Positions 12,573 to 53,356 of a stretch of DNA of 64,000 nucleotides are shown piece by piece. The DNA is from Escherichia phage vB_EfeM_pEP20, in the sequence record OQ743992; one strand, given 5' to 3'. The translations under genes were made by a program, and so were the position numbers. The notes under the pieces are model-generated. The model was not told the origin of the DNA, did not search any database, and saw only the letters and a list, made by a program, of their open reading frames with translations. The stretch's first letter is position 1, and the number at the start of each line of letters is the position of its first letter.

Positions 12573-12631
12573 TTGCTTTTTATAATTTTTTGCAGTAATG
12601 TATGAGGTTAATGATTTTAGAGGGAGTAAAA

Positions 12632-14815
12632 ATGGAAAACGTAGATTTTAAAAACTTACATTTAGTTGGTGATACAGAAACTGATGGTTTACTCCTTGAG
12701 TTCACTAAAGTACACGTAATGGCTTTCGCAGACTATAAATCTGACGATGAAGAGCCACCTGTATGGGTCTTTACAGATGAGCCTATCCTCGGTCACAAGT
12801 ATACCAAGTACATTAAGGGTGGTTTGCGTGAAGGTGTTGAGTTTGCGTTAAAGGCAAAACGGCTTTGCATCCATAATGGTCTGGGTTATGACTGGTGGGT
12901 TTTCAATCACATTGCACCTGATTTATGGAACTTTGATAATCCAAAGTGTAAGCCGTGGAGTAATTTCTTTCAGGATTCTCTTATCCAGTCTCGTGTTCAG
13001 TGGATGGATAGACCAACTCCAAAAGGCTATAAAGGTGCTCATGGCTTGGCAGCGTGGGGTGCTCGTGTTGGTGTTCGTAAACCAGAGATTGAACATTGGG
13101 GTGTGTGGAATGCAGAAATCTTCACTCGTGTTGTAGAAGATATCCGTATTAACGCCAAAACTAAACGTGCACTGGATAATGAATATCTCAAACTTAAGAA
13201 GTGTGGTATAGACACTTATGAAACCTATATGAGAGCTAAAGAAACATCTTTCTGGATGAGTCAACAAGCTATCAATGGTTGGAAAGCTGATAAAGAGCTT
13301 ATGGAGTTCCATGTAAAGGAACTTGACAAGTTGACTAATGAGCTTGCTTCAGAAGTTGAACCACATCTTCCTCCAACTATTAAGACCAAAGGTAAAGTCA
13401 CTGGAGAAGAGTTTGCAAAAGCTTGGAATGAATATGTTGAAACATTCGGTCATGCAGATGGACTGAAGAGAATTACAAAGTACCCTAAGACGAAGTATCG
13501 CCAACAGGTACGTAACGGTGAGATGCAGACATACGAAATCAAGCCATTTGGGAAGCCAACTACAAAGATTTTTAACATTGAAAAGCGGAATTGCTATACA
13601 CCAACCAACTCCGTAACTGGTGAAGAGTACAAGGAAGGTTTTGTAGCAATGAAGGATGCTCGTGCAATTTGCAATGAGTTGAATGCAAAGATTGGTAAGA
13701 AGTGCAAAGACTGGAAGCCAGTAAAAACAGTTAAAACTGTGAAGTACTATAACAGCCATGTTGTTAACCACTTTGAACTTGAGTCAAGTCGCTACACAGG
13801 TTTGATTGATGCACCATATACACCAATTGAGTTCGAAGTTTCTCGTATGACTCAGGTAGCAGTTGTTAAAGACTACTTGAAATCAGTTGGTTGGATTCCA
13901 GATGACTGGAACTACAAGAAAGACTCAGATGGTCGTCCTGTTAAGGTTTGTCGCTTCAAAGACAACAAAAAGATGATTACAAAACATCCTAAGTGGGATG
14001 AGATGGTGGAACGGTGTGGTTTGAGTTATGTTGAACACGAAGGTGTCCAGTACATTGAACATAACTGGTCTGTTAAGAAGTACACAGATTTGCTTGAGCC
14101 TTGCTTAATCCGTACTTCACCAAAACTTACTGAATCATCTTATGACACGATTGAAGGTGAGCTTGGACAGAAGATTGCGAAATACTATACTTTGATGCAC
14201 CGACGTAGAACTATTGAGAACTCAAAAGATGATGAAAAAGGTTGGTTGAACCAGATTCGTCCTGATGGTCGCCTTAGTGCTGGTGCAATGGTGTTTGGTA
14301 CTTCAACTGGACGTATGACACAATATGGTATTGTAAACGTGCCGTCTGGTGCTGCTGTCTATGGAGCACCTATGAGGGAGGTCTGGACTTGTGAAGAAGG
14401 TACTAATATTGTTTCAGCCGACATGAATAGCGCCCAACTTGTGCTACTGTGTAACTTTATGGGCGATAAAGATTTCACTAAAGCGGTGACAGAGGGTAAA
14501 GAAGAGGTTGAATTTGTCAAACAAGAGGATGGTAGATACTATTGCAAACATTTTGACCAGTATCTAAACCCAGCTATTGACAAGTATTTACATTATGATT
14601 CTGAAAATGACTTATACGTGGTGTACTCAGGGACTGATGCACACACTTTGAATAGTATCTACTTCAGTCTTAATAAAGAGGAAGACATCTTGACATGTCG
14701 AGCTACTCAGGATACAAGTCTTCTTCAAGAAATTAGTAAAGGTCGTAAGAAAGCCAAAAATGGCATCTATGCGTCAGTGGCGCATGTAAAACGTTGTGAA
14801 TTGCTGGAAGCCTAA
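12632..14815 (+). CDS. DNA polymerase (family A), N-terminal segment: 3'-5' exonuclease domain and polymerase domain up to the O-helix
   Basis: ATG at 12632 preceded by AGGGAG. Exo motifs (LVGDTETDGL, HNGLGYDWW). Ends in RKKAKNGIYA, the first half of the PolA O-helix; the reading frame then runs into a stop. Confidence 0.8.
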   Translation: MENVDFKNLHLVGDTETDGLLLEFTKVHVMAFADYKSDDEEPPVWVFTDEPILGHKYTKYIKGGLREGVEFALKAKRLCIHNGLGYDWWVFNHIAPDLWNFDNPKCKPWSNFFQDSLIQSRVQWMDRPTPKGYKGAHGLAAWGARVGVRKPEIEHWGVWNAEIFTRVVEDIRINAKTKRALDNEYLKLKKCGIDTYETYMRAKETSFWMSQQAINGWKADKELMEFHVKELDKLTNELASEVEPHLPPTIKTKGKVTGEEFAKAWNEYVETFGHADGLKRITKYPKTKYRQQVRNGEMQTYEIKPFGKPTTKIFNIEKRNCYTPTNSVTGEEYKEGFVAMKDARAICNELNAKIGKKCKDWKPVKTVKTVKYYNSHVVNHFELESSRYTGLIDAPYTPIEFEVSRMTQVAVVKDYLKSVGWIPDDWNYKKDSDGRPVKVCRFKDNKKMITKHPKWDEMVERCGLSYVEHEGVQYIEHNWSVKKYTDLLEPCLIRTSPKLTESSYDTIEGELGQKIAKYYTLMHRRRTIENSKDDEKGWLNQIRPDGRLSAGAMVFGTSTGRMTQYGIVNVPSGAAVYGAPMREVWTCEEGTNIVSADMNSAQLVLLCNFMGDKDFTKAVTEGKEEVEFVKQEDGRYYCKHFDQYLNPAIDKYLHYDSENDLYVVYSGTDAHTLNSIYFSLNKEEDILTCRATQDTSLLQEISKGRKKAKNGIYASVAHVKRCELLEA

Positions 14816-15575
14816 GTCTGTAAAGATATGGTAATCAGCAGCGAAGTCTCTGTTAGGACTCCTAAAACAAAGGAGAGAGACAATGGCAGGTTACGAAGAG
14901 AGATTATGCACTGAGTGTGGTACGGAGTTTAAACCATATCAATACAATCAGAAACGGTGCAGAAGTTGTGTATTAAAGTTTGACAGAAGGGCAGAACACA
15001 GGGTTCTTACTAAGAAATGCCCTAGTTGTGAGAAGGTGTTCATGCCGAGAACAGCAAGGCAAGTTTATTGTTCGTCACATTGCGGTGAGAAAGGTAGAGT
15101 TAAGAATTACTACCTAAGAACATATGGATTGGAAAGAGGAGAGGTTGAGGCTCTACTCCGTGACTGTGATTACAAATGTCAAATTTGTGGCGGTGAAGGT
15201 TTTATCATGAATGGTTCACGACACAAGGCTAAACTTGTTGTTGACCATGACCATAAAACCGGAAAGGTAAGAGGTATGTTATGCCACAATTGCAACAGAG
15301 CTTTGGGGTTGCTTGCAGATAGTGTTGATAACATGCAAAGAGCAATTGACTATCTAAGCAAATGATATAACTATAGAGATTCCTAACAGAGAAACGTTCA
15401 GAGACTATCGAAAAGCATACTTAACGTATGAACTGAGTAGAGTAGGGTGGTAAGCTAATGACCATTCCCAAGTGCAACGGTAGTATTACTACTACGTGAT
15501 ATAGTCCGACACTCCGTAGAAATGCGGAGAAGTTCATAAGAGAACTGGTACACCTTGCGAGTGTATTGACCAGAT
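14774..15575 (+). mobile_element. intervening sequence in the DNA polymerase gene carrying an HNH endonuclease ORF; probable self-splicing group I intron (boundaries approximate)
   Basis: O-helix is split: exon 1 ends ...KNGIYA, exon 2 resumes VLFGAGDEKFAK. The second part has no RBS or ATG. The inserted ORF has its own RBS. Confidence 0.55.
14883..15365 (+). CDS. HNH homing endonuclease
   Basis: 160 aa; cysteine-rich N-terminus and the HNH core VVDHDHKTGKVRGMLCHNCNRALG; RBS AAAGGAGAGAGA upstream. Confidence 0.8.
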   Translation: MAGYEERLCTECGTEFKPYQYNQKRCRSCVLKFDRRAEHRVLTKKCPSCEKVFMPRTARQVYCSSHCGEKGRVKNYYLRTYGLERGEVEALLRDCDYKCQICGGEGFIMNGSRHKAKLVVDHDHKTGKVRGMLCHNCNRALGLLADSVDNMQRAIDYLSK

Positions 15576-16133
15576 GTATTGTTCGGTGCAGGTGATGAGA
15601 AGTTTGCTAAGACGATTAAAGCATCTACAACTGAGGAAGGTGCTTTAACTAAGCAAACATACTTTGTACGTCTCCCTAAAATTAAGAAGCTGCTGGATAA
15701 TTTAGAAGCAGACTTCAAAGCCACTAAGAAGGCTCTTGAAGAGGTATTTGGTAAGACTGCCGCAATCTCTAAAGGGGGTTTTGTAAAGGTTGCTGGAGCT
15801 TGGTTGTGGTGTAAATCTCCACATAAGTTATTGAATTATTTGCTTATGGGTTCTGAAAGTCAGGTTCAGAATGAAGCCATCAACCTTGCTTGTAGAAGAA
15901 CTTGTGAAGAGGGTCTTACAAAGTTGAATGGTCGAAAACCAGCTATTGGCGCTAGATTGCTTTTAGCATATCACGATGAGAATAGTTGGGAGTGCCCAGA
16001 AGACATGACGCAGGATGTTAAAGCAGTAATTGACTGGATGTATGGTCAAGCGTCAAGAAATTTAGGGCTTAAGAAAGAAACGCTTGTTACGGGCACTGGT
16101 AAGGTTGGTAAAAGCTGGCTTGAAGTACACTAA
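15576..16133 (+). CDS. DNA polymerase (family A), C-terminal segment (second half of O-helix to motif C)
   Basis: Frame opens after a stop at 15567-15569 with VLFGAGDEKFAKTI and includes the motif C-like LLAYHDE; the track start at 15579 is a non-ATG codon. Confidence 0.75.
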   Translation, partial: VLFGAGDEKFAKTIKASTTEEGALTKQTYFVRLPKIKKLLDNLEADFKATKKALEEVFGKTAAISKGGFVKVAGAWLWCKSPHKLLNYLLMGSESQVQNEAINLACRRTCEEGLTKLNGRKPAIGARLLLAYHDENSWECPEDMTQDVKAVIDWMYGQASRNLGLKKETLVTGTGKVGKSWLEVH

Positions 16134-16194
16134 TTAGTATTGACAAGGTGCTCATGGAAGAGTACCTTATACAATATCTTGTATAGGAGGACAT

Positions 16195-16413
16195 ATGACA
16201 CTTTCAGAGATTGAAGTTCAGTTGCAATGTGCAGGTTATTCTCAAAAAGAGATTGAAGGGATGTTTATTGTTCTTTGCAGTAGCTGTAGGAATTTGAAGG
16301 TAAACCCTGAAGTTCTACGTAGAGTAGATATCTTTATTGCTGGAGGTAAAATCGCAAAAGATAAGACAGGCTACTTAAAAGGTGAGCGTGTAAATATTGA
16401 GAGTTTACTATGA
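16195..16413 (+). CDS. hypothetical small protein (72 aa), paralog of 16616-16828
   Basis: RBS AGGAGG then ATG; shares the C-terminal GKIAKDKTGYLKGERVNIE motif with the downstream paralog. Confidence 0.5.
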   Translation: MTLSEIEVQLQCAGYSQKEIEGMFIVLCSSCRNLKVNPEVLRRVDIFIAGGKIAKDKTGYLKGERVNIESLL

Positions 16414-16619
16414 GCCACCGTGGAAGAACCCATGCAGCAATGATGAAAGGTGCTTCAAAGGAAACTATCAAGAACCGTAAGCAGAAGTTGTTTGAGAGAA
16501 TGAACAGGCTAATTGACAATTCATCTCTTTCAGGTTCTGAGAAGGTTTTCTTGAAAGGTAATCTGAAAAGCATTGCACAAGAACTTATTGATATTGAATA
16601 TTGGAGACATCAAAAATGA
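16410..16619 (+). CDS. hypothetical protein (69 aa)
   Basis: Track ORF with ATGA overlap to the upstream gene. Confidence 0.45.
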   Translation: MSHRGRTHAAMMKGASKETIKNRKQKLFERMNRLIDNSSLSGSEKVFLKGNLKSIAQELIDIEYWRHQK

Positions 16620-16828
16620 CACTTGCAGACGTTATTCAGCAACTTCACGATAATTGCTACACTCCAGAGTTGATTCAAGAGATGCTTATTGTGGTGATGC
16701 CTAGTAAGTTCGTAAAAGGTTTTAATAGTGAATCTTTAAAGTCTGCGCATATCCTTATTGTTGACGGTAAGATTGCAAGAGACCGCACAGGAGTCCTTAA
16801 GGGTGAACGTATCAGTATTGACCTCTGA
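16616..16828 (+). CDS. hypothetical small protein (70 aa), paralog of 16195-16413
   Basis: ATG at 16616 after GGAGA; C-terminus GKIARDRTGVLKGERISID matches the paralog. Confidence 0.5.
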   Translation: MTLADVIQQLHDNCYTPELIQEMLIVVMPSKFVKGFNSESLKSAHILIVDGKIARDRTGVLKGERISIDL

Positions 16829-16845
16829 GTATTGGGAACACCAAA

Positions 16846-17001
16846 ATGAAACGCAAAGTAAAATTATTTAGTTTATATGGGAGAGTCGGTAAAGGTTTTG
16901 ATTGGCAACTGCTACGCTCAGATGTTAAAAGCAACGAATTAGCACAACTCATCATAAACTACCGGCGTACATACAGAGAAGTAGAACATCGTGAACAATA
17001 A
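16846..17001 (+). CDS. small basic hypothetical protein (51 aa)
   Basis: Hand-found ORF MKRKVKLFSLYGRVGKGF... below the track cut-off. Confidence 0.3.
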   Translation: MKRKVKLFSLYGRVGKGFDWQLLRSDVKSNELAQLIINYRRTYREVEHREQ

Positions 17002-17016
17002 AACAGGAGATGTGTT

Positions 17017-17253
17017 ATGTGGAAAGCAGTAATTACACTTGGTGTTATTTTTCTAACTGGCTGCAACCCTTCTTATGAAGATAAGAATGCTTCTTATAGC
17101 CTCCCACCAGAAATGCAAGATTGTAAGGTCTATAAGTTACATGGTGATGCCATAAGCAGAGATATTGTTGTTGTCAGATGTCCAAACTCTCAAACAACAA
17201 CATCTTATAGCTATGGCAAAAATGGTCAATCACACACTACTGTTATTGAGTGA
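17017..17253 (+). CDS. putative lipoprotein (78 aa)
   Basis: Signal peptide with lipobox (VIFLTGC); RBS AGGAGA upstream. Confidence 0.5.
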   Translation: MWKAVITLGVIFLTGCNPSYEDKNASYSLPPEMQDCKVYKLHGDAISRDIVVVRCPNSQTTTSYSYGKNGQSHTTVIE

Positions 17254-17263
17254 GGTTTTCAAG

Positions 17264-17470
17264 ATGGAAGTCCTAGTAAACTATATCTATTGTTATGATG
17301 TTGTTCACTCCACTACAACCGTAGCTCAACGTAATCCAATCGTCCCACGAGAAGGTGAGTTGGTTCGCATCGAGGGTTGGACTTACACTGTGGGAAGCAT
17401 CATTCATAAGTTTGATGTTGCTGGTGATGTTCAAGTTATCGACGTAGAGATTGGTGGTAAGAGAAAATGA
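17264..17470 (+). CDS. hypothetical protein (68 aa)
   Basis: ATG at 17264 chosen over the overlapping longer track ORF (17165). Confidence 0.45.
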   Translation: MEVLVNYIYCYDVVHSTTTVAQRNPIVPREGELVRIEGWTYTVGSIIHKFDVAGDVQVIDVEIGGKRK

Positions 17471-17658
17471 ACAAAGAAGACAAGCATAAAAATGCTGTAC
17501 GAACTCCTGATGGAAAGGTTCAATCCTTCATCCTGACAGTTGGTGGAAAGCCGTTTCGTTGCCACTGCGGAGCAAACTGTTTTCATAAACCAGATAAAAA
17601 TGACTTAGAGCTTTACGCATGTAATGCTTGCAATACTTGGTATCACTCAGAGGAATAA
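17467..17658 (+). CDS. hypothetical cysteine-rich (zinc-finger-like) protein
   Basis: 63 aa with CHCGANC...CNAC cysteine pairs. Confidence 0.45.
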   Translation: MNKEDKHKNAVRTPDGKVQSFILTVGGKPFRCHCGANCFHKPDKNDLELYACNACNTWYHSEE

Positions 17659-48080: not shown

Positions 48081-48156
48081 TGGAGAATCCGAAGGGACTC
48101 GAACCCTTATAAACCTGTTTTGCAGACAGGCACATAGCCATTTCTGTCACGGATTC
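48081..48156 (-). tRNA. tRNA-Cys (anticodon GCA)
   Basis: Hand-folded: perfect 7-bp acceptor, anticodon loop CTGCAAA, T-arm AAGGG-TTCGAGT-CCCTT, discriminator U, CCA encoded. Confidence 0.75.
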
Positions 48157-48160
48157 AAAT

Positions 48161-48253
48161 TGGAGGAAGATACCAGACTTGAACTGATACACCGATTTCT
48201 CAGCTACTGGCAGTTTAGCAAACTGCTCCCTTACCTTTTAGGGTTAATCTTCC
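48161..48253 (-). tRNA. tRNA-Ser (anticodon GCT), class II
   Basis: Perfect acceptor GGAAGAT/ATCTTCC, anticodon loop TTGCTAA, about 20-nt variable arm, T-loop TTCAAGT. Confidence 0.75.
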
Positions 48254-48254
48254 A

Positions 48255-48989
48255 TTATTTCTGTAATGCGTTCTTCATTTCTGGTGTTGCAATAGTGTCA
48301 ATTACACCAGTTTTACAAGCATCATCAAACCAGTCTGGTAAGATACCTGCTAAGAACCCATTGATATTCGTTTTAAGGTACTCTGCAATAAGGGCAGCTT
48401 CTTCTTCAATCATCTGCACAACTTCATCTGCATAAGCTGTAATCTTTGAGATACCTTCATTAATCTTGCTAACAGCTTGGTTAGCTAAATCAGAAATAGT
48501 ATCAAGACCTTTATCAATAGCATCTTGTAAGTCACTTAATACATCGTTAACACCGTCTAGTGCACTGTTAATTGTGTCAATAGCTTTTTGACCATATTCT
48601 GTAGCAACACCCATAATACCACTAAATGGTGTACAACCAACTTGCTCTCCTGCTGCACCCATAACATTGGAATATCCTTTTGCTACCTGCATACGTGATG
48701 AAAACTCATCAATGGACTTTTGACCGTAATCTGTCAGTGTCTTAGTGGTTGATGTAGTGCTTGTCAGACTCGTTGTAAAGCTGTTAAGCAGAACTGTTGT
48801 AAGTCCAGCGGCAACAAGTTTATCCTTTATTGTAGGGTCTGTTACAGAGCTAATAGAGCTTACAAGTGATGTAGAGGCAGCTACGGTTCCACCGAGAACT
48901 GCTGCACCAGTAATAAGGGGATTAGAAAACCCTCTACCGGTTTTTAAGAGACCAAAAATCTCCTTACCTTGTTCTGTCATCTCTTTCAT
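48255..48989 (-). CDS. hypothetical protein with hydrophobic segment and coiled-coil region, embedded in the tRNA array
   Basis: Start taken at ATG 48989 (MKEMTEQ...) behind AAAGGTG; the longer track start would overlap a tRNA-like gene. Confidence 0.45.
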   Translation of the reverse strand: MKEMTEQGKEIFGLLKTGRGFSNPLITGAAVLGGTVAASTSLVSSISSVTDPTIKDKLVAAGLTTVLLNSFTTSLTSTTSTTKTLTDYGQKSIDEFSSRMQVAKGYSNVMGAAGEQVGCTPFSGIMGVATEYGQKAIDTINSALDGVNDVLSDLQDAIDKGLDTISDLANQAVSKINEGISKITAYADEVVQMIEEEAALIAEYLKTNINGFLAGILPDWFDDACKTGVIDTIATPEMKNALQK

Positions 48990-49005
48990 TAAGCACCTTT
49001 GAAAT

Positions 49006-49080
49006 TGGTAGTTCAGTGGGATTTGAACCCTCTTCTCATGTTTTTCAGACACGCGCTTTAACCATATAAGCTACTTGGAC
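49006..49080 (-). tRNA. tRNA-like gene with Phe-type anticodon arm (GAA); acceptor stem does not pair, possible pseudo-tRNA
   Basis: Good D-arm (GCTT/AAGC) and anticodon arm (loop CTGAAAA), T-loop TTCAAAT, but 5' GTCCAAG cannot pair with 3' TGAACTA. Confidence 0.35.
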
Positions 49081-49087
49081 TATAAAT

Positions 49088-49163
49088 TGGGGTGACCTAC
49101 GGGATTTGAACCCGTATAGACCATGTTCACAGCATGGGTCATTACCATTTATGATAAGGCCAC
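49088..49163 (-). tRNA. tRNA-His (anticodon GTG)
   Basis: Acceptor GTGGCCT/AGGTCAC, D-stem TCAT/ATGA, anticodon loop CTGTGAA, T-arm ACGGG-TTCAAAT-CCCGT. Confidence 0.7.
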
Positions 49164-49194
49164 ATTTAAGGACTCTCGTAAGAATCCTTAGAAG

Positions 49195-49270
49195 TGGCAG
49201 CGGCATAAGGATTTGAACCTTAATAAGACAGCTTCAGAGACTGCTGCATTGCCAGTTATGCTATACCGCT
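49195..49270 (-). tRNA. tRNA-Gln (anticodon CTG)
   Basis: Acceptor AGCGGTA/TGCCGCT, D-stem GCAT/ATGC, anticodon loop CTCTGAA. Confidence 0.6.
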
Positions 49271-49275
49271 AAATT

Positions 49276-49354
49276 TGGTACTCCATATCGGATTCGAACC
49301 GATACATAACACAGATTTTAAGTCTGGCCTCTCTGCCAATTGGAGTAATGGAGC
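49276..49354 (-). tRNA. tRNA with Leu-type anticodon TAA but short variable arm (atypical)
   Basis: Acceptor GCTCCAT/ATGGAGT, perfect T-arm ATCGG-TTCGAAT-CCGAT, Leu-like D-loop AATTGGCAGAG, anticodon loop CTTAAAA, discriminator A, variable region only about 7 nt. Confidence 0.5.
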
Positions 49355-49356
49355 AT

Positions 49357-49432
49357 TGGCGGGGGATGCTGGAATTGAACCAGCTTCTTCGATTTCAAAG
49401 ACCGAGGTTTTAACCTTGTAAACTAATCCCCT
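49357..49432 (-). tRNA. tRNA-Gln (anticodon TTG)
   Basis: D-stem GTTT/AAAC, anticodon arm TCGGT-CTTTGAA-ATCGA, T-arm GCTGG-TTCAATT-CCAGC; first acceptor pair mismatched. Confidence 0.6.
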
Positions 49433-49440
49433 TTAAATCT

Positions 49441-49998
49441 TTACTTTCTTAGTGGATGAATAAAGAATGCCAACATAACTCTTTCCCTTGAGAATGCTCT
49501 TTCTTCTGGGACAACACTTTTTAGTTTCCATCCAATATAAATTCTCCAGTAAAACTGTTTACCAAAGACTTTAATTGATGGGATAAAAGCGAATAATCCC
49601 CAAGCATTACTGTTCCACATTAGGAGATAACCAGTCTGATTATCTTCAGGGTCAGAACTTACGTTGATATTACCTTTCCACTTAGTAACATCTTTTACAT
49701 CTCTTCCTAATACATGGTAAGAGAAGTTATAAGCTTTGTTTCTCCAGAGCCATCCAACTCTCTGCATATAAACACCAAGCTTACCAATCTTTCTAATCTT
49801 AGCCCATCTCTCAACGTGGCCTTTGTCACCATCAATCGGGTTGTCATAGGTCTCCATCCATCTGAATCCAAAAGGTAGATGCCCTTTCTTCTCGCTGTAG
49901 AATGGAACCACAAATGGTGCTAAGATTACTGCTAAGATTGCTGCAAATGGTTCTAGCAAAGCTAGGAAAATCCATGAAGCATATTTTAAATATCTCAT
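49441..49998 (-). CDS. hypothetical membrane protein (185 aa) inside tRNA array
   Basis: N-terminal hydrophobic helices (IFLALLEPFAAILAVILAPFVVPF). Confidence 0.45.
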   Translation of the reverse strand: MRYLKYASWIFLALLEPFAAILAVILAPFVVPFYSEKKGHLPFGFRWMETYDNPIDGDKGHVERWAKIRKIGKLGVYMQRVGWLWRNKAYNFSYHVLGRDVKDVTKWKGNINVSSDPEDNQTGYLLMWNSNAWGLFAFIPSIKVFGKQFYWRIYIGWKLKSVVPEERAFSRERVMLAFFIHPLRK

Positions 49999-50237
49999 CG
50001 TCTAATCCTTGTAAGGAGATAAGTGTTATTATTTGTTTCTGAGTTTTCTGGTAACATTGTCTCAAAATTGACACTTTTAAGTTGTCTTCCACCAAAGTAA
50101 TGACCAATAAATTTTTCTACTCTTATTGGGTCGCATTCCCAGCCGACTTTCAAGAAAATGTGGGTATCTATAGTGGGAACCCTTACAAACTCAACACTAT
50201 TGGAATTTTCATGTTCAACGACTATTAATGTTTGCAT
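49995..50237 (-). CDS. hypothetical protein (80 aa) inside tRNA array
   Basis: Track ORF with overlap to downstream gene. Confidence 0.4.
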   Translation of the reverse strand: MQTLIVVEHENSNSVEFVRVPTIDTHIFLKVGWECDPIRVEKFIGHYFGGRQLKSVNFETMLPENSETNNNTYLLTRIRR

Positions 50238-50245
50238 AAATCCCT

Positions 50246-50321
50246 CTTACTTAATTGGCGCAGGATAAGGGATTCGAACCCCTATTAACAGCTTCGTAGA
50301 CTGTTGCTCTATCCATTTGAA
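50246..50321 (-). tRNA. tRNA-Arg (anticodon ACG)
   Basis: Perfect acceptor GCAGGAT/ATCCTGC, anticodon loop CTACGAA, T-loop TTCGAAT. Confidence 0.7.
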
Positions 50322-50326
50322 CTAAT

Positions 50327-50404
50327 CCTGCAAAATTGGTGTTCCAAGACGGATTCGAACCGTCACTAGTACAAGGTTTGAGCTTGCATCCTCTGCCAAT
50401 TGGG
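50327..50404 (-). tRNA. tRNA with Leu-type anticodon CAA but short variable arm (atypical)
   Basis: Acceptor GTTCCAG/TTGGAAC, Leu-like D-loop AATTGGCAGAG, anticodon arm GCAAG-CTCAAAC-CTTGT, perfect T-arm GACGG-TTCGAAT-CCGTC, discriminator A, 6-nt variable region. Confidence 0.5.
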
Positions 50405-50405
50405 A

Positions 50406-50480
50406 TACTGGAACATGGTACTCACTAAAGGACTTGAACCTTTTTCTTCATCTTGTAAGGGTGATGTTTTACCATATAAA
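50406..50480 (-). tRNA. tRNA-Val (anticodon TAC)
   Basis: Acceptor ACTCGCT/AGTGAGT, D-stem GTTT/AAAC, anticodon loop CTTACAA, T-arm AAAGG-TTCAAGT-CCTTT. Confidence 0.65.
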
Positions 50481-50577
50481 CTAAGCGAGTGTGAAAAGAG
50501 GTCTGAAGTTGTGCCGCTAACTCAACTCCGTGGAATTTGTTACGGTCTTCAGTTGACTCAAAGCGGTCTTTCACTTG

Positions 50578-50653
50578 ACCTCTAAATTGGTGCTCCCACA
50601 AGGATTCGAACCCTGATAAGTTGCTTACAAGGCAACCGTAATAGCCAATTATA
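50578..50653 (-). tRNA. tRNA-Thr (anticodon TGT)
   Basis: Acceptor GCTCCTA/TGGGAGC, anticodon arm GTTGC-CTTGTAA-GCAAC, T-loop TTCGAAT. Confidence 0.65.
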
Positions 50654-50660
50654 CGATAGG

Positions 50661-50735
50661 AGCATTAATTTGGAGCATCCAGAGGGAATCGAACCCTCAA
50701 CCTCAGTTTGGAAGACTGTAATTTTCCCGTTTAAA
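50661..50735 (-). tRNA. tRNA-Gly (anticodon TCC)
   Basis: Perfect acceptor GCATCCA/TGGATGC, anticodon loop CTTCCAA, T-arm GAGGG-TTCGATT-CCCTC. Confidence 0.7.
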
Positions 50736-50741
50736 CTATGG

Positions 50742-50817
50742 ATGCACTAATTGGTGGAGTCACTGAGAATTGAACTCAGTTCCCAAGTTTGCAAAACTCG
50801 AATTTTAACCATATAAA
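50742..50817 (-). tRNA. tRNA-Ala (anticodon TGC)
   Basis: Acceptor GGGGTCA/TGACTCC with the G3-U70 pair, anticodon loop TTTGCAA, T-arm CTGAG-TTCAATT-CTCAG. Confidence 0.75.
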
Positions 50818-50824
50818 CTATGAC

Positions 50825-50900
50825 CCCCATTGTTTGGTACAGGTGGATGGAATTGAACCCATCGTCTTACTGATTAAGAGTCAGCCGCATAACCATTTTG
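50825..50900 (-). tRNA. tRNA-Lys (anticodon CTT)
   Basis: Acceptor GCAGGTG/CACCTGT, anticodon arm GCTGA-CTCTTAA-TCAGT, T-stem GATGG/CCATC. Confidence 0.6.
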
Positions 50901-50907
50901 CTACACC

Positions 50908-50984
50908 TGCATTAATTTGGTACACCTAGAGAGATTCGAACTCACACTGAGCAGATTCTAAGTCTGCTGCCTCTACCAGTTGGG
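50908..50984 (-). tRNA. tRNA with Leu-type anticodon TAG but short variable arm (atypical)
   Basis: Acceptor GCACCTA/TAGGTGT, Leu-like D-loop CAACTGGTAGAG, perfect anticodon arm GCAGA-CTTAGAA-TCTGC, T-loop TTCGAAT, discriminator A, 5-nt variable region. Confidence 0.5.
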
Positions 50985-51249
50985 CTATAGGTGCATTAAA
51001 TCTTTTTAGAGAACTTCTAAGAACCTAAGCAACAAGGTTCCACAACAAGCTGTAATAACCTTAGAAGCCCTCTAAAAAGACCTAAATAGGTCTTTGCATA
51101 GTCTTGTTTAATCCGGTGACTAGAACCTTTGGAGAGCTTGATATTATCTCTTCTCCGTGACACCTACTAGGTGCTTTATCAGTGTGTACGACAATACACG
51201 AGGGATAAACCGAAAATGCGAGCAAGCATGGACGGTATAAATCTTATTA

Positions 51250-51339
51250 GGCGGTAAGTAAAGGAGTCGAACCCTCACCGTATCTCTACAGTGGCAACTG
51301 TTTTCAAGACAGTTTGGCTACCATTAGCCGCTACCTACC
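51250..51339 (-). tRNA. tRNA-Ser (anticodon TGA), class II
   Basis: Acceptor GGTAGGT/ACTTACC, perfect anticodon arm ACTGT-CTTGAAA-ACAGT, 20-nt variable arm, T-loop TTCGACT; CCA not fully encoded. Confidence 0.65.
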
Positions 51340-51352
51340 CCTAATAAGACTT

Positions 51353-51435
51353 TGGCATGGGACGGAGGAGTTGAACCACTTTGAAACGGTTTTGGAGGCC
51401 GTTGCTCATGCCTTAGAGTCTTAACATCGTCCCAT
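51353..51435 (-). tRNA. tRNA-like gene with Trp-type anticodon loop (CCA) and expanded 5' D region (atypical)
   Basis: Perfect 7-bp acceptor ATGGGAC/GTCCCAT with discriminator G and CCA; loop CTCCAAA on stem ACGG/CCGT; about 8 extra nt before the D-arm and a weak T-stem. Confidence 0.4.
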
Positions 51436-51587
51436 ACTTTAATTCGAAGCTTACCGTATTTTCGCAACACTGTAAAGCCCCTTCTCAGATTATTTACATG
51501 TTCTGGAAAACATGAGATACAGACCACCTCCTTACACGGAGACCCGATAAGGTCGTCTAAGCAATCTGCTAACTATTTGGCACACCC

Positions 51588-51664
51588 TACAGGATTCGAA
51601 CCTGTAACTAACGATTTAGAAGACCGTTGCTCTATCCAATTGAACTAAGGGTGCATTAATCTTT
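51588..51664 (-). tRNA. tRNA-Arg (anticodon TCT)
   Basis: Acceptor GCACCCT/AGGGTGT, D-stem GTTC/GAGC, anticodon arm ACGGT-CTTCTAA-ATCGT, T-arm ACAGG-TTCGAAT-CCTGT. Confidence 0.7.
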
Positions 51665-51991
51665 AAAGACTCTCTTAGAAAGCCCTTAAAGATGCCCACC
51701 TTATTAATCATACCGTGGGCTAGTACGCCAAATTCTTTGATGAGGGATTGGAAGACCTCACTGGTGTTTAGCCTATCAAGCTACTGCCAGAAAAACATTG
51801 TCGTTTGCATTTATTTTAAATTTGCAAAATAGACGCTACGCAACGAAAACTATTCAGAATATGTACAACAAATTTCCCCACATTGTGTTACGTCTAACGC
51901 TCATGTATTGGTGTTTGAATTATACATATTATGAATCATTTTTAGTTACTATAAAGCGGTCACATCTCAATGTCAACAACTTTATTGAAAT

Positions 51992-52067
51992 TGGTGCTGG
52001 TAGGTGGAATCGAACCACCGATATTCCCTTATCAGGGGAGTGTTATAACCTTCTTAACTATACCAGC
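51992..52067 (-). tRNA. tRNA-Ile (anticodon GAT)
   Basis: Perfect acceptor GCTGGTA/TACCAGC, D-stem GTTA/TAAC, anticodon loop CTGATAA, T-arm GGTGG-TTCGATT-CCACC. Confidence 0.7.
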
Positions 52068-52068
52068 T

Positions 52069-52145
52069 TGGAGGTTCAGATGGGAATCGAACCCACATTC
52101 ATAGGGCTTATGAAACCCCTGCATTACCTTATCTGCGACTGAACC
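52069..52145 (-). tRNA. tRNA-Met (anticodon CAT)
   Basis: Acceptor GGTTCAG/CTGAACC, anticodon arm with three consecutive G-C pairs and loop TTCATAA, T-arm GTGGG-TTCGATT-CCCAT. Confidence 0.65.
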
Positions 52146-52149
52146 ATAT

Positions 52150-52225
52150 TGGTAGAAGTAGAGGGATTCGAACCCATCGCCTGTCAGATTAAAAGTCTGC
52201 CGCATCACCATTCTGCTACACTTCC
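52150..52225 (-). tRNA. tRNA-Lys (anticodon TTT)
   Basis: Acceptor GGAAGTG/TACTTCT (two G-U pairs), anticodon loop CTTTTAA, T-loop TTCGAAT with a weak stem. Confidence 0.55.
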
Positions 52226-52229
52226 ATTA

Positions 52230-52373
52230 AATTATCTTTGTAGATAAGCTACCCAGACTTGCTTAAGGTCTGTAGCGATGTGCCTTTTTGGGTTTAAATC
52301 TAGAATTTACCCTTTCACCCTTTGTGGTCGCATACTCACAGGTAAGCTTAATAACTTATCTACAAAGATAATT
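52230..52373. repeat. 19-bp perfect inverted repeat (AATTATCTTTGTAGATAAG) enclosing about 106 bp
   Basis: Arms at 52230-52248 and 52355-52373 are exact reverse complements; the enclosed sequence holds hairpin CCCAGAC-TTGCTTAAG-GTCTG. Confidence 0.6.
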
Positions 52374-52374
52374 A

Positions 52375-52506
52375 CCAGACCGTTGTTTATCATCTTAAGT
52401 GCTACCATTACACCAACTCGACATCTGCCGAGTGAAGGAATCGAACCTTCGCCTTTTCTTTACCGGAGAAATAGATTGTTTAAAGTTTGCTGTAAACGGT
52501 CTTCTG
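52375..52506 (-). ncRNA. candidate Y-RNA-like ncRNA U1 with embedded tRNA-like module (YrlA-like architecture)
   Basis: Minus-sense 5' CAGAAGACCGUUUACAGCAAAC ... ACGGUCUGG 3' with termini pairing (AGACCGU/ACGGUCU); interior has hairpin UUUCU-CCGGUAA-AGAAA, T-arm GAAGG-UUCGAUU-CCUUC, closed acceptor-like hairpin ACUCGGC-AGAU-GUCGAGU, D-arm GUG-UAAUGGUAG-CAC. Confidence 0.5.
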
Positions 52507-52519
52507 TAAATTTGTTGAG

Positions 52520-52604
52520 CCAGACCAAGTTTTAAATTTTTCAAAATTAAATTGGCTTGAAATTTTAAGTAACTTGCTGAATTTGGTCTTCTGCTCCTTT
52601 AAAG
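52520..52604 (-). ncRNA. candidate Y-RNA-like ncRNA U2
   Basis: Minus-sense 5' CAGAAGACCAAAUUCAGCAAG ... UUGGUCUGG 3'; terminal stem AGACCAA/UUGGUCU covaries with U1/U3. Confidence 0.45.
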
Positions 52605-52690
52605 AATACTCGTAAGAACTCTTTAAGGGAGGGGCTAAATAGCCCTCTCAAACATCATTTTGAAATACTTATTATAATTTGGCGGTTACG

Positions 52691-52768
52691 AAGGGATTCG
52701 AACCCTCATCATCTCCCGTGACAGGGGAGTATTTTAACCAGATTAAACTACATAACCTTCATTTGGTG
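52691..52768 (-). tRNA. tRNA-Asp (anticodon GTC)
   Basis: Acceptor GGTTATG/CGTAACC, perfect anticodon arm CTCCC-CTGTCAC-GGGAG, T-loop TTCGAAT. Confidence 0.7.
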
Positions 52769-52774
52769 TGCCGT

Positions 52775-52862
52775 GTAGGAGTCGAACCTACCGAGTCTTA
52801 ATGACAAGGGATTTACAGTCCCCACCGCTACCATCTACGGGATAACGACACATTTAAATTTG
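52775..52862 (-). tRNA. tRNA-Tyr (anticodon GTA), class II
   Basis: Acceptor GTGTCGT/ACGGCAC, anticodon loop CTGTAAA, long variable arm, T-arm GTAGG-TTCGACT-CCTAC. Confidence 0.65.
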
Positions 52863-52871
52863 GCGGTTAGT

Positions 52872-52948
52872 CAGGGATTCGAACCCTGTGCCATTCGCTT
52901 AACAGGCGACCGCACATACCTTATGTGCTTCCTAACCTTAATACATTG
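52872..52948 (-). tRNA. tRNA-Asn (anticodon GTT)
   Basis: D-stem GCAC/GTGC, anticodon loop CTGTTAA, T-arm CAGGG-TTCGAAT-CCCTG; last acceptor pair mismatched. Confidence 0.65.
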
Positions 52949-52959
52949 CCAGACCGTGT

Positions 52960-53020
52960 TTTTTCTTTTATCCACAAAAAAGTAGTTTGTTGCTGAATAC
53001 GGTCTTCTGCAAAATTGGAG
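52960..53020 (-). ncRNA. candidate Y-RNA-like ncRNA U3
   Basis: Minus-sense 5' CAGAAGACCGUAUUCAGCAAC ... CACGGUCUGG 3'; internal hairpin CUUUUUU-GUGGAU-AAAAGA. Confidence 0.45.
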
Positions 53021-53026
53021 GCGGGT

Positions 53027-53103
53027 GCAGGAGTCGAACCTGCCGATACCATGCTAATGAGACATGTGAGACGCCCTTTCTCTATACCCGCAATTCTTAA
53101 TGA
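53027..53103 (-). tRNA. tRNA with anticodon CAT (second Met, or Ile2 if lysidine-modified)
   Basis: Anticodon arm CATGT-CTCATTA-GCATG, T-arm GCAGG-TTCGACT-CCTGC; first acceptor pair mismatched. Confidence 0.6.
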
Positions 53104-53114
53104 CCAGACCAAAT

Positions 53115-53187
53115 CTCTTCTTTGTCCGATTTCGTGTCAGATGAATAAGCTTAAGTTTGCTGTAATTGGTCTTCTGTCAAAACTGGC
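53115..53187 (-). ncRNA. candidate Y-RNA-like ncRNA U4
   Basis: Minus-sense 5' CAGAAGACCAAUUACAGCAAAC ... UUGGUCUGG 3'; same conserved 5' core and covarying terminal stem as U2. Confidence 0.45.
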
Positions 53188-53194
53188 GTTCCAG

Positions 53195-53272
53195 AAGGGA
53201 TTTGAACCCTCAAATATCCACTTTGAAAGAGTGGTGACTTTACCATTTTGTCTACTGGAACATTAATTTGGT
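53195..53272 (-). tRNA. tRNA-Glu (anticodon TTC)
   Basis: Perfect acceptor GTTCCAG/CTGGAAC, perfect anticodon arm CCACT-CTTTCAA-AGTGG, T-loop TTCAAAT. Confidence 0.7.
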
Positions 53273-53279
53273 CTCTGTT

Positions 53280-53356
53280 GGAGGACTTGAACCTCCGGCC
53301 TTACCGCCCCAAACGGAACGCTCTACCAAGCTGAGCTAAACAGAGATAAACTTTTC
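53280..53356 (-). tRNA. tRNA-Pro (anticodon TGG)
   Basis: Perfect acceptor CTCTGTT/AACAGAG, D-stem GCTC/GAGC, anticodon loop TTTGGGG, T-arm GGAGG-TTCAAGT-CCTCC. Confidence 0.7.

Follow-up and report, generated by a model that had tools for sequence, protein, structure and literature searches.

The family-A DNA polymerase gene of Escherichia phage vB_EfeM_pEP20 is broken by an 802-nt insert that is very probably a mobile, self-splicing group I intron of phage type IA2 with its own endonuclease, a reading in which splicing is deduced from the RNA fold and the essentiality of the polymerase. The window analysed, a 64,000-nt stretch of DNA (OQ743992), is a Felixounavirus genome to which Escherichia phage HK3 is 98.6% identical over the query. 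The polymerase gene lies at 12602-16133 and the insert at 14775-15576; all features described here are on the + strand. A whole-window Rfam search and the HK3 annotation revealed no other interrupted genes or introns in the 64 kb, and in the literature on Felix O1-like phages we found no experimental study, RNA or biochemical, of the polymerase intron.

Polymerase exons and definition of the splice junction

Exon 1 (12602..14774), defined by the open reading frame (ORF) list and Pfam DNA_pol_A, with its junction placed by BLAST, alignment and an automatic search, encodes the 3'-5' exonuclease region, the thumb, and the fingers as far as the O-helix, whose first half it includes. Its end reads ...GRKKAKNGIYA followed by a T, the first base of a Leu codon. 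The ORF itself spans 12602-14815, taking in 13 codons of the insert (SVAHVKRCELLEA) before it stops at the TAA of 14813-14815. Exon 2 (15577..16133), delimited using the ORF list, the spliced frame and alignment to intron-less genes and T7, opens with TA, completing the Leu codon, and continues with LFGAGDEKFAKTI..., motif C and the stop codon. As originally predicted, the second segment follows an in-frame stop (TGA, 15567-15569), past which the polymerase frame resumes; ahead of 15577 there is neither an ATG nor a Shine-Dalgarno sequence.

Deletion of 14775-15576 gives a 2730-nt reading frame of 909 aa, the same length as the uninterrupted polymerase gene of UAB_Phi87 (2730 nt, PMC4837284). 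At the junction the protein reads ...KNGIYA-L-LFGAGDEK, the Leu codon being divided as T/TA, where the original prediction had assigned Val from GTA; the predicted ligated-exon sequence is ...TATGCGT/TATTGTTC... (slash, junction). The spliced product scores 56.4 bits against Pfam DNA_pol_A PF00476 (cut-off 34.3), in a match spanning residues 690-905 and thus crossing the junction. Aligned to T7 polymerase, the spliced frame shows a gapless O-helix, in agreement with the proposal that a T7-like O-helix is rebuilt from the two segments, and the split codon corresponds to T7 F528 and E. coli Pol I L764.

The boundaries were fixed by three independent lines, whose agreement is far beyond chance. 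When the spliced junction was used as a BLAST query, matches broke exactly at base 200/201 in intron-bearing phages and ran uninterrupted in intron-less ones. Alignment of the intron-less KMM2 and KhF1 genes to the spliced polymerase gave zero gap at the junction. An automatic boundary search, with the rules that a U at -1 pair with a G in a 6-bp P1, that the 3' end be a G and that the O-helix motif be restored, returned 14775-15576 as its single solution. Comparison with intron-less polymerases, proposed beforehand as a check, thereby defined the junction to the base: the insertion placed at 14774-15575 from the letters alone was real, and its ends were one base off. At the same site, the intron-less alleles of KhF1 and pinkbiff read ...TATGCAC/TGCTGTTCGG... 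and ...TACGCCC/TGTTATTTGG..., respectively.

Ribozyme fold of the insert

The intron (14775..15576; 802 nt, IA2-like, without P2, last base the omega G at 15576) was delineated from Rfam, orthologues, folding and the boundaries above. P1 (14769..14785) joins the 5' exon sequence AUGCGU (14769-14774) to the internal guide GCGCAU (14780-14785) with 6/6 pairs, including a U.G pair at the 5' splice site (U14774.G14780). P1 covaries with the exon in related introns, reading AUGGGU/GCCCAU in Pakpunavirus and GACGUU/GGCGUC in a T7-like phage. The hallmarks of group I splice sites, namely the P1 U.G pair, the terminal G and restoration of the frame, are all present, and the solution is unique. Read by eye, CAGUG (14775-14779) and the first bases of exon 2 (UAUUG) could form P10.

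The 5' strand of P3, CGUUG (14792..14796), finds its partner CAACG beyond the ORF at 15475-15479, as supported by the covariation test below. The P4-P5-P5a domain (14802..14840), matching Rfam model positions 60-139, was obtained in minimum-free-energy folds and shows compensatory changes in P4 between lineages; its strands are P4 14802-07/14835-40, P5 14811-12/14830-31 and P5a 14816-19/14824-27, the last closed by a GUAA tetraloop. P6 (GCG) and the P6a 5' strand (UCUCUGUUAGGA) follow at 14841..14858, and their 3' strands, located by helix search and in the helix table described below, lie at 15381..15397 (P6a 15381-15392; P6 15395-15397), making P6a a 12-bp helix without mismatch. The endonuclease gene sits in the P6a loop. 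In the ORF-less copy of JLBYU28, P6a is shortened and kept, and at its base a double change has turned U-A into C-G.

The 3' half of the catalytic core (15403..15506) rests on the Rfam consensus, our own covariance model and covariation between lineages. It contains the P7 5' strand GACUA (15403-07), P7.1 (15416-20/15426-30), P7.2 (15446-51/15461-66), the P3 3' strand (15475-79), P8 (15480-85/15490-95), and J8/7 with the P7 3' strand, GAUAUAGUC (15498-15506). The Rfam consensus segments that characterize J6/7 and J8/7, GUUCAGAGACUA and GAUAUAGUC, are both matched in the intron. Peripheral 3' helices occupy 15512..15573, as judged from the ORF-less Rfam alignment, folding and the helix table: P9 (15512-18/15523-29, with a GAAA loop), P9.1 (15532-35/15542-45) and P9.2 (15545-53/15561-73). 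P7.1 and P7.2 lie between P7 and P3' and are joined by GAGUAGAGUAG, a GUA-containing segment, as in subgroup IA2; this assignment was made by inspection against a published description (PMC3428280), not with a subgroup-specific model.

P3 to P8, including the P3/P7 pseudoknot, were thus all located, and four sequences representing three lineages yield the helices under unconstrained folding; relative to shuffles, folding of the core has z = -3.9. The original prediction had named a search for P1-P9 elements as a check, and every core helix is present.

This intactness bears on the idea of a decayed, non-splicing intron, which would make the polymerase a pseudogene or leave only a truncated 737-aa exon 1 product. 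Unspliced RNA would indeed stop 13 codons into the intron. Nevertheless, none of the core helices has been lost, nor has the U.G pair or the terminal G, exon 2 is colinear with intron-less genes and kept under purifying selection, and the near-identical phage HK3 is annotated with one family-A polymerase only, while intron-carrying isolates are viable. We consider decay exceedingly unlikely, and a group I intron that would still splice remains our reading.

Rfam scores and covariation

Against Rfam RF00028 (gathering score 50), the window intron scores 24.6 bits for P4-P6 and 15.4 bits at full length, low values that we attribute to splitting of the match by the ORF-bearing insertion, ~520 nt long, in the P6a loop. 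The Rfam search of the entire window likewise gave group I matches below threshold only. The ORF-less orthologues of JLBYU28 and Mushroom, whose cores are 99% identical to that of the window intron, score 64.2 and 62.3 bits. A covariance model of our own, built from the 268-nt ORF-less form and run on 62 sources, gave 163 bits on 15323-15529, and every match was cut into 5' and 3' halves by the endonuclease ORF.

Felixounavirus copies of the intron are nearly identical, so covariation was drawn from distant relatives. A MAFFT alignment of the ORF-deleted cores of three lineages was rejected since it left the variable helices out of register, and a scripted helix-by-helix table was used instead. 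In this table of the Felix, Pakpunavirus and T7-like introns, every helix is paired with differing sequence, with three exceptions: P7 is the same in all three and therefore carries no covariation information, P9.1 is the same in two, and the T7-like intron has a single mismatch in P6. The helices thus covary between lineages, and the junction segments are constant. The covariance-model alignment, split by the ORF, could not reach the long-range P3, and an anchor-based test of cognate versus non-cognate pairing was therefore adopted, in which the 3' anchor was fixed and the control used the same 5' candidate sets. P3 paired 5/5 in 19 of 21 non-redundant related introns, compared with 5.8% of non-cognate combinations.

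These results weigh against a gene in pieces, the trans-acting split polymerase that had been put forward as the alternative. There, a free-standing endonuclease cassette would have divided the polymerase, and the halves would be translated apart and assemble in trans, as is reportedly the case for NrdA of the T4-like phage Aeh1, split by mobE. GenBank records of relatives do annotate two 'DNA polymerase' CDSs, the second starting from a TTG (15579 in the window), and the Mushroom announcement gives the polymerase as two genes (PMC4392139). However, this TTG is internal to the restored frame, the second segment offers neither Shine-Dalgarno sequence nor ATG, and the break lies mid-codon and mid O-helix, with the halves rejoining without a residue gained or lost. 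Moreover, the group I ribozyme fold of the spacer survives deletion of the endonuclease gene (268-nt form, Rfam 64 bits), a retention that insertion of a simple cassette would leave unexplained. We regard a split polymerase as highly improbable. The predicted layout of a group I intron with a homing endonuclease is favoured instead, given that the core helices were all found and the ORF-less orthologues lie above the Rfam threshold.

The intron-encoded endonuclease

The putative homing endonuclease gene (14883..15365, 160 aa) was identified by Pfam, a structure match and invariant residues. It lies in a frame other than that of the polymerase, with its own start, and its anticipated ribosome binding site was found as a Shine-Dalgarno sequence AAGGAG (14870..14875), 7 nt before the ATG. 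This sequence can pair with CUCCU just upstream in a predicted hairpin; we make no claim of regulation for it, as the CUCCU/AGGAG hairpin scores no better than shuffles (z = -0.98).

The sole Pfam domain above threshold is Endonuclease_7 (PF02945; E = 2.2e-19, 69.6 bits, cut-off 23.6). The N-terminal half has two CxxC...CxxC zinc-ribbon-like motifs, and the C-terminal half an Endo VII-type His-Me finger nuclease (DHDH...VRG...CHNCN), in which D121, H122, H124, R130 and N138 are invariant in an alignment of four lineages. Among solved structures the nearest is that of restriction enzyme Hpy99I (E = 1.7e-5), to whose active-site region the protein aligns. By these features the ORF is an intact nuclease of the Endo VII/'DHHRN' branch of the His-Me finger superfamily; an endonuclease had been correctly called, and its description as HNH does not hold in the canonical sense.

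The domain content also speaks to the possibility of an intein or other protein-level insertion, removed post-translation, for which a highly conserved catalytic motif would be the typical place. Pfam detects Endonuclease_7 alone in the ORF, with no Hint or intein domain, the ORF has its own start in another frame, and the in-frame stops at 14813-14815 (TAA) and 15567-15569 (TGA) bar read-through. We discount an intein entirely, in favour of an intron removed at the RNA level.

Proposed mechanism of splicing and homing

In the proposed mechanism, the polymerase gene would be transcribed as a single RNA, in which the intron would fold as a P1-P9 ribozyme. An external guanosine would attack after U14774, held in P1 by the U.G pair with the internal guide sequence, and the released exon 1 would then attack after the terminal G15576, ligating the exons. 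The predicted mRNA would encode a family-A polymerase of 909 aa whose O-helix is intact. The P6a loop, dispensable for folding, houses the endonuclease gene with its own ribosome binding site. In mixed infection, polymerase alleles free of the intron are the expected targets of the endonuclease, to be cut or nicked close to the insertion site, and recombinational repair from an intron-bearing genome would copy the intron together with a few tens of bases of flanking exon, that is, homing. We infer both the splicing activity and the endonuclease specificity in this scheme.

Distribution and probable footprints of homing

The intron is already known in sister phages, and the finding is correct, not new. 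The Endo VII-motif proteins of JH2, EC6 and FSL SP-010 have been listed as intron-encoded (Fang et al. 2018, PMC6083498), and an ORF-less intron has been described in Meda's DNA polymerase gene (PMC6486253). No introns were noted when the Felix O1 genome was first published (PMC3185647), and the polymerase gene of that strain is uninterrupted. The same intron occurs with the ORF in the Felixounaviruses JH2, EC6, FSL SP-010, HK3 and BPS15Q2, and without it in Meda, Mushroom, SPJ41, JLBYU28 and 35FD. These copies share gene, insertion site and phase with the window, at 96-99% identity in the core and 78-99% in the endonuclease. The differences are strain-level only, with a few synonymous changes in the flanking exon relative to HK3 and VpaE1, and the endonuclease gene of the window is intact, not decayed.

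Among ~300 phage records with this polymerase region, ~40 have the intron with the ORF and ~56 more the intron core only, and intron lengths of 802, 780, 311 and 268 nt form a series of ORF decay. The intron-bearing 35FD and JLBYU28 share their exon background with the intron-less pinkbiff and ESCO45, differing only within ~25 nt on the upstream side of the junction and 31 nt on its downstream side, and within this tract they have the window-type flank. The patchy distribution, the ORF-decay series and the ~25-31 nt of apparently co-converted flanking exon point to homing.

Comparison with related systems

Phage polymerase introns with His-Me finger endonucleases have reportedly been known since SPO1 (1990). 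The introns of SPO1, SP82, phi-e, Bastille, Pf-WMP3 and phiL7 (I-HmuI, I-HmuII, I-BasI, I-PfoP3I) are, like that of the window, IA2 introns in phage family-A polymerase genes; they encode His-Me finger (HNH) nicking endonucleases and sit in conserved finger-domain sequence. The Pf-WMP3 intron likewise lacks P2 (PMC3428280). Their sites, 674 and 676 in E. coli numbering, differ from 764 in the window, as do endonuclease family and domain order. Another polymerase intron, located in motif C (position 881 in E. coli Pol I), is also IA2 with P7.1/P7.2 and has its ORF in P6a with its own ribosome binding site; it encodes a canonical HNH enzyme, whereas the window intron at 764, in the O-helix, encodes one of Endo VII type.

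The C-terminal D-H-x-H...R...N nuclease domain is shared with the F-CphI/'DHHRN' family, Hpy99I and T4 endonuclease VII, and the window protein belongs to a family in the 'endonuclease clade' of Fang et al. (PMC6083498). F-CphI is free-standing beside a psbA intron and Hpy99I is a restriction enzyme, whereas the window endonuclease is intron-encoded. Pseudomonas phage ph0034, a Pakpunavirus, and T7-like Yersinia phages of the Berlin type have introns of homologous architecture and homologous endonucleases, the latter with 41% and 51% identity, respectively. The Pakpunavirus intron occupies the identical codon and phase, and that of the T7-like Yersinia phages is displaced 11 nt upstream, into the codon for T7 F524. 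The ORF of either intron extends into P6a/P7 sequence, whereas the Felix ORF stops before P6a closes.

More broadly, within a 17-nt stretch of the O-helix coding sequence of phage family-A polymerases, group I introns occupied by this one family of Endo VII-type endonucleases lie at four discrete positions, offset by 20, 25, 31 (the window) and 36 nt relative to the R..AK Arg codon. Members of the same family also stand free directly behind uninterrupted polymerase genes. At least one pair of near-identical contigs, L034 and L039, has the same intron core and endonuclease at two sites 16 nt apart, with exchange limited to the 3' end and the guide sequence. When insertion sites were set against a neighbour-joining endonuclease tree, its resolution was too poor to decide whether each site has a clade of its own. 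Possibly, and with more doubt than confidence on our part, this otherwise ordinary intron belongs to a wider, apparently undescribed pattern of endonuclease-intron assembly and intron retargeting ('collaborative homing').

Implications

The finding adds little to group I intron biology. If the wider pattern is real and unreported, it would provide a natural series recording endonuclease-intron assembly and retargeting, and 764 would be a polymerase insertion site additional to the published 674, 676 and 881. For Felixounaviruses, what dozens of GenBank records list as two 'DNA polymerase' CDSs and an 'endonuclease VII' would represent one intron-containing polymerase gene and an intron-encoded endonuclease, and the polymerase should carry a joined-CDS annotation of 909 aa. 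Felixounaviruses are candidates for therapy and biocontrol, and pangenome and phylogenetic studies of them are affected, since the intron, as a mobile marker, produces spurious differences in gene content. The Felix-type enzyme may serve as a convenient representative of Endo VII-type homing endonucleases, with natural target variants, in the form of intron-less alleles and co-converted flanks, already at hand for mapping its specificity.

Results

The polymerase frame that opens at 12602 runs to 14815, passing from ...GRKKAKNGIYA into SVAHVKRCELLEA and then a stop codon. It is followed by a 160-aa ORF at 14883-15365, preceded by AAGGAG, and after an in-frame TGA the polymerase frame picks up again (...LFGAGDEKFAKTI) with neither an ATG nor a Shine-Dalgarno sequence. 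The ORF list and the sequence thereby bear out the original prediction of an interrupted polymerase gene with an inserted ORF. When 12602-14774 is joined to 15577-16133, the polymerase frame is 2730 nt (909 codons) long, a length also reported for the uninterrupted polymerase gene of UAB_Phi87 (PMC4837284).

A 400-nt spliced junction, used as a BLAST query, matched most Ounavirinae polymerase genes in a single piece and split precisely at base 200/201 in genomes with the intron. Alignment with intron-less KMM2 and KhF1 was gapless across the junction (slash), where intron-less genes read GCC C/TG TTG or GCA C/TG CTG and the window reads GCG T/TA TTG, all encoding A-L-L. An automatic splice-site search was run under three requirements: a 6-bp P1 in which the U at -1 pairs with G, a G as the last intron base, and an R..AK...Y...YG motif made whole again by splicing. 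It returned 14775-15576 as its single solution. Because of the BLAST break, the gapless alignment and this single solution, the predicted boundaries (14774-15575) were shifted by one base to 14775-15576, and the junction residue, predicted to be Val, was corrected to Leu. The Pfam DNA_pol_A match of the predicted spliced protein spans the junction, and the protein aligns without gaps to the T7 polymerase O-helix (TRDNAKTFIYGFLYGAGDEKIG), with T7 F528 as the counterpart of the split codon. Under the standard equivalence of R518/K522/Y526/Y530 of T7 with R754/K758/F762/Y766 of E. coli Pol I, the split codon corresponds to Pol I L764. An intein was also considered, and was ruled out because of the stop codons.

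A Rfam search of the window gave two group I matches below the gathering score of 50, one to P4-P6 (24.6 bits) and one full-length (15.4 bits), in which the consensus segments of J6/7-P7, J8/7-P7' and P9 are aligned. We attribute the low scores to the large ORF-bearing insertion in the loop of P6a. Copies of this intron that naturally lack the ORF, in JLBYU28 (268 nt) and Mushroom (311 nt), scored 64.2 and 62.3 bits, and the core is 99% identical between the window and Mushroom. The helix map comprises P1 (14769-74 with 14780-85), which places a U.G pair at the splice site; P3 (14792-96 with 15475-79); P4; P5/P5a, capped by a GUAA loop; P6; a perfect 12-bp P6a (14847-58 with 15381-92) holding the ORF in its loop; P7 (15403-07 with 15502-06); P7.1, P7.2 and P8; P9 with a GAAA loop; P9.1 and P9.2; and the terminal G at 15576. 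P2 is absent; in this, and in having P7.1 and P7.2, the intron resembles the IA2 introns of phages PhiI, W31 and Pf-WMP3 (PMC3428280). With the ORF deleted, the core is much more stable than shuffled sequences (-83.6 kcal/mol, z = -3.9), and unconstrained folding recovered P3-P6a, P7.1, P7.2, P8, P9 and P9.1.

These features bear on two other readings. A polymerase split into two trans-acting polypeptides is unlikely, since the second half lacks initiation signals, the gene is interrupted within a codon inside the O-helix, and the spacer is still a ribozyme fold where the endonuclease gene is gone. It is likewise improbable that the intron is dead and no longer splices, as every splice determinant is intact and the near-identical phage HK3 has this gene as its sole annotated family-A polymerase.

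Escherichia phage HK3 shares 98.6% identity with the 2.2 kb around the intron; for JH2, BPS15Q2, VpaE1 and other members of Felixounavirus (Felix O1-like myophages of the Ounavirinae) the figure is 93-97%. The intron is nearly invariant across Felixounavirus, and relatives were therefore sought via the endonuclease. Homologous introns were found in a Pakpunavirus, Pseudomonas phage ph0034 (endonuclease 41% identical), at the identical codon and phase, and in a T7-like Yersinia phage (51%), at a site 11 nt upstream. In all three lineages P1 through P9.2 remain paired, except for one mismatched P6 position of the T7-like intron. P7 does not vary among them and P9.1 is identical in two, while the remaining helices differ in sequence and the joining segments are constant. 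The endonuclease has 449 relatives in IMG/VR. Among 21 non-redundant introns from such loci, the 5-bp P3 pairs at 5/5 positions in 19, its strands lying 500-700 nt apart across the ORF, compared with 5.8% for non-cognate 3' strands.

The HK3 record lists 'DNA polymerase', 'endonuclease VII' and 'DNA polymerase' in this order, and GenBank records of relatives (L001, L002, L003, L008) label the locus inconsistently. Exon 2 appears as its own CDS from TTG or as 'DNA polymerase subunit'; in EC6, 'DNA polymerase I' is the name given to the endonuclease ORF and 'hypothetical protein' the one given to the polymerase exons; and JLBYU28 has a 38-codon antisense ORF annotated within the intron. From polymerase stop to DNA ligase start (16134-17623) the window has ~1.5 kb, against ~0.5 kb in HK3. 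The extra DNA contains small ORFs, including two apparent paralogues of 72 aa (16195-16413) and 75 aa (16601-16828) with common stretches ...GGKIAKDKTGYLKGERV... and ...DGKIARDRTGVLKGERI.... Elsewhere, ARAGORN placed 26 clustered tRNA genes on the minus strand at 48081-53345, as is typical of Felix O1-like phages, 24 of them above the Rfam threshold. A weak tmRNA-like Rfam match at 51655-51844 (15.2 bits, threshold 47) had no ARAGORN call; Felix O1 encodes a tmRNA according to the Mushroom announcement (PMC4392139).

The endonuclease gene is intact in the window, and its product matches Pfam Endonuclease_7 (PF02945, E = 2e-19), with the restriction enzyme Hpy99I as nearest solved relative. D121, H122, H124, R130 and N138 are invariant across four lineages and are the counterparts of the D-H-H-R-N residues defining the Endo VII-motif homing endonuclease family proposed by Fang et al. 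2018 (PMC6083498). Two CxxC...CxxC motifs in the N-terminal half presumably serve DNA binding.

Of ~300 phage records that cover this part of the polymerase gene, ~40 carry both intron and ORF, ~56 more have just the intron core, and all others lack the intron. Intron lengths trace ORF decay from the intact 802 nt to 780 nt (VpaE1, with a match length of 458 nt, no multiple of three), 311 nt (Mushroom, retaining the final ORF codons) and 268 nt (JLBYU28 and 35FD). The latter two share their exon background with intron-less pinkbiff and ESCO45, but around the junction, for about 25 nt on its upstream side and 31 nt on its downstream side, they have the window-type sequence instead, covering synonymous sites and one Ser/Ala difference. 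This pattern matches the co-conversion tract expected of homing (general mechanism in PMC3984707) and is the clearest apparent sign of mobility. Within the opening 25 nt of exon 2 (15577-15601), HK3 and VpaE1, otherwise the nearest relatives, differ from the window at three synonymous sites (GGG GCT GGC against GGT GCA GGT), with one further synonymous difference in the next 25 nt; over the start of exon 2 the window agrees with Mushroom, JLBYU28 and EC6. Separate homing events or endonuclease target variation could account for this.

Introns with homologues of the endonuclease (loci L006-L088, from IMG/VR and phage records) occupy four discrete O-helix coding positions 5-6 nt apart. Counted from the Arg codon of R..AK, these lie at 20, 25, 31 and 36 nt (8, 18, 12 and 6 loci, respectively), the window intron (14775) being at 31; offsets 19 and 37 have one locus each. 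Most loci have a full 6-bp P1 and a restored O-helix motif. The family also occurs free-standing in many viral contigs (loci L021, L026, L045-L050, L055-L058, L060, L065, L068, L074, L078 and L087), directly behind uninterrupted polymerase genes with an intact O-helix and starting ~10-30 nt past the polymerase stop codon. Downstream of the first intron, covariance model and P3 test picked out a second group I-like element at L038:2902-2991 and L039:2918-2972 (L039 P3 candidate 2378/2913), which suggests that the same polymerase gene contains, or is followed by, a further intron.

Discussion

On sequence grounds, the original prediction correctly recognised a classical intron-plus-endonuclease arrangement, one already known and noticed in sister phages. 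The Felix O1 genome paper reported no introns (PMC3185647), and the polymerase gene of that strain is uninterrupted. The Mushroom announcement gave the polymerase as two genes (PMC4392139), the Meda announcement described a DNA polymerase gene holding an intron without HNH endonuclease (PMC6486253), and the SPJ41 paper listed two introns among non-coding RNAs (PMC9951933). Fang et al. 2018 counted JH2, EC6 and FSL SP-010 among the phages whose Endo VII-motif protein is intron-encoded (PMC6083498); the introns of these three are the same as the window's. We found no splicing or cleavage experiment on the Felixounavirus polymerase intron in the literature. Polymerase intron sites in print are 674, 676 and 881 in E. 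coli numbering (PMC3428280), in contrast to 764 here, and the searchable literature yielded no description of an O-helix intron hot spot.

The free-standing copies resemble the layout of free-standing endonuclease and intron site in the 'collaborative homing' model (PMC3984707). Within the wider family, L034:1200-2100 and L039:1180-2100 have exons ~97% identical and an almost identical intron core and endonuclease, yet the intron is inserted at offset 20 in one contig and 36 in the other, a shift of 16 nt. Their difference is confined to the intron ends, namely the guide sequence, P9.x region and 3' end, and the two guides, GAGGUCU and GAGGAAC, are each complementary to the 5' exon of their own contig. 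The pair looks like a case of modular exchange or retargeting of an intron.
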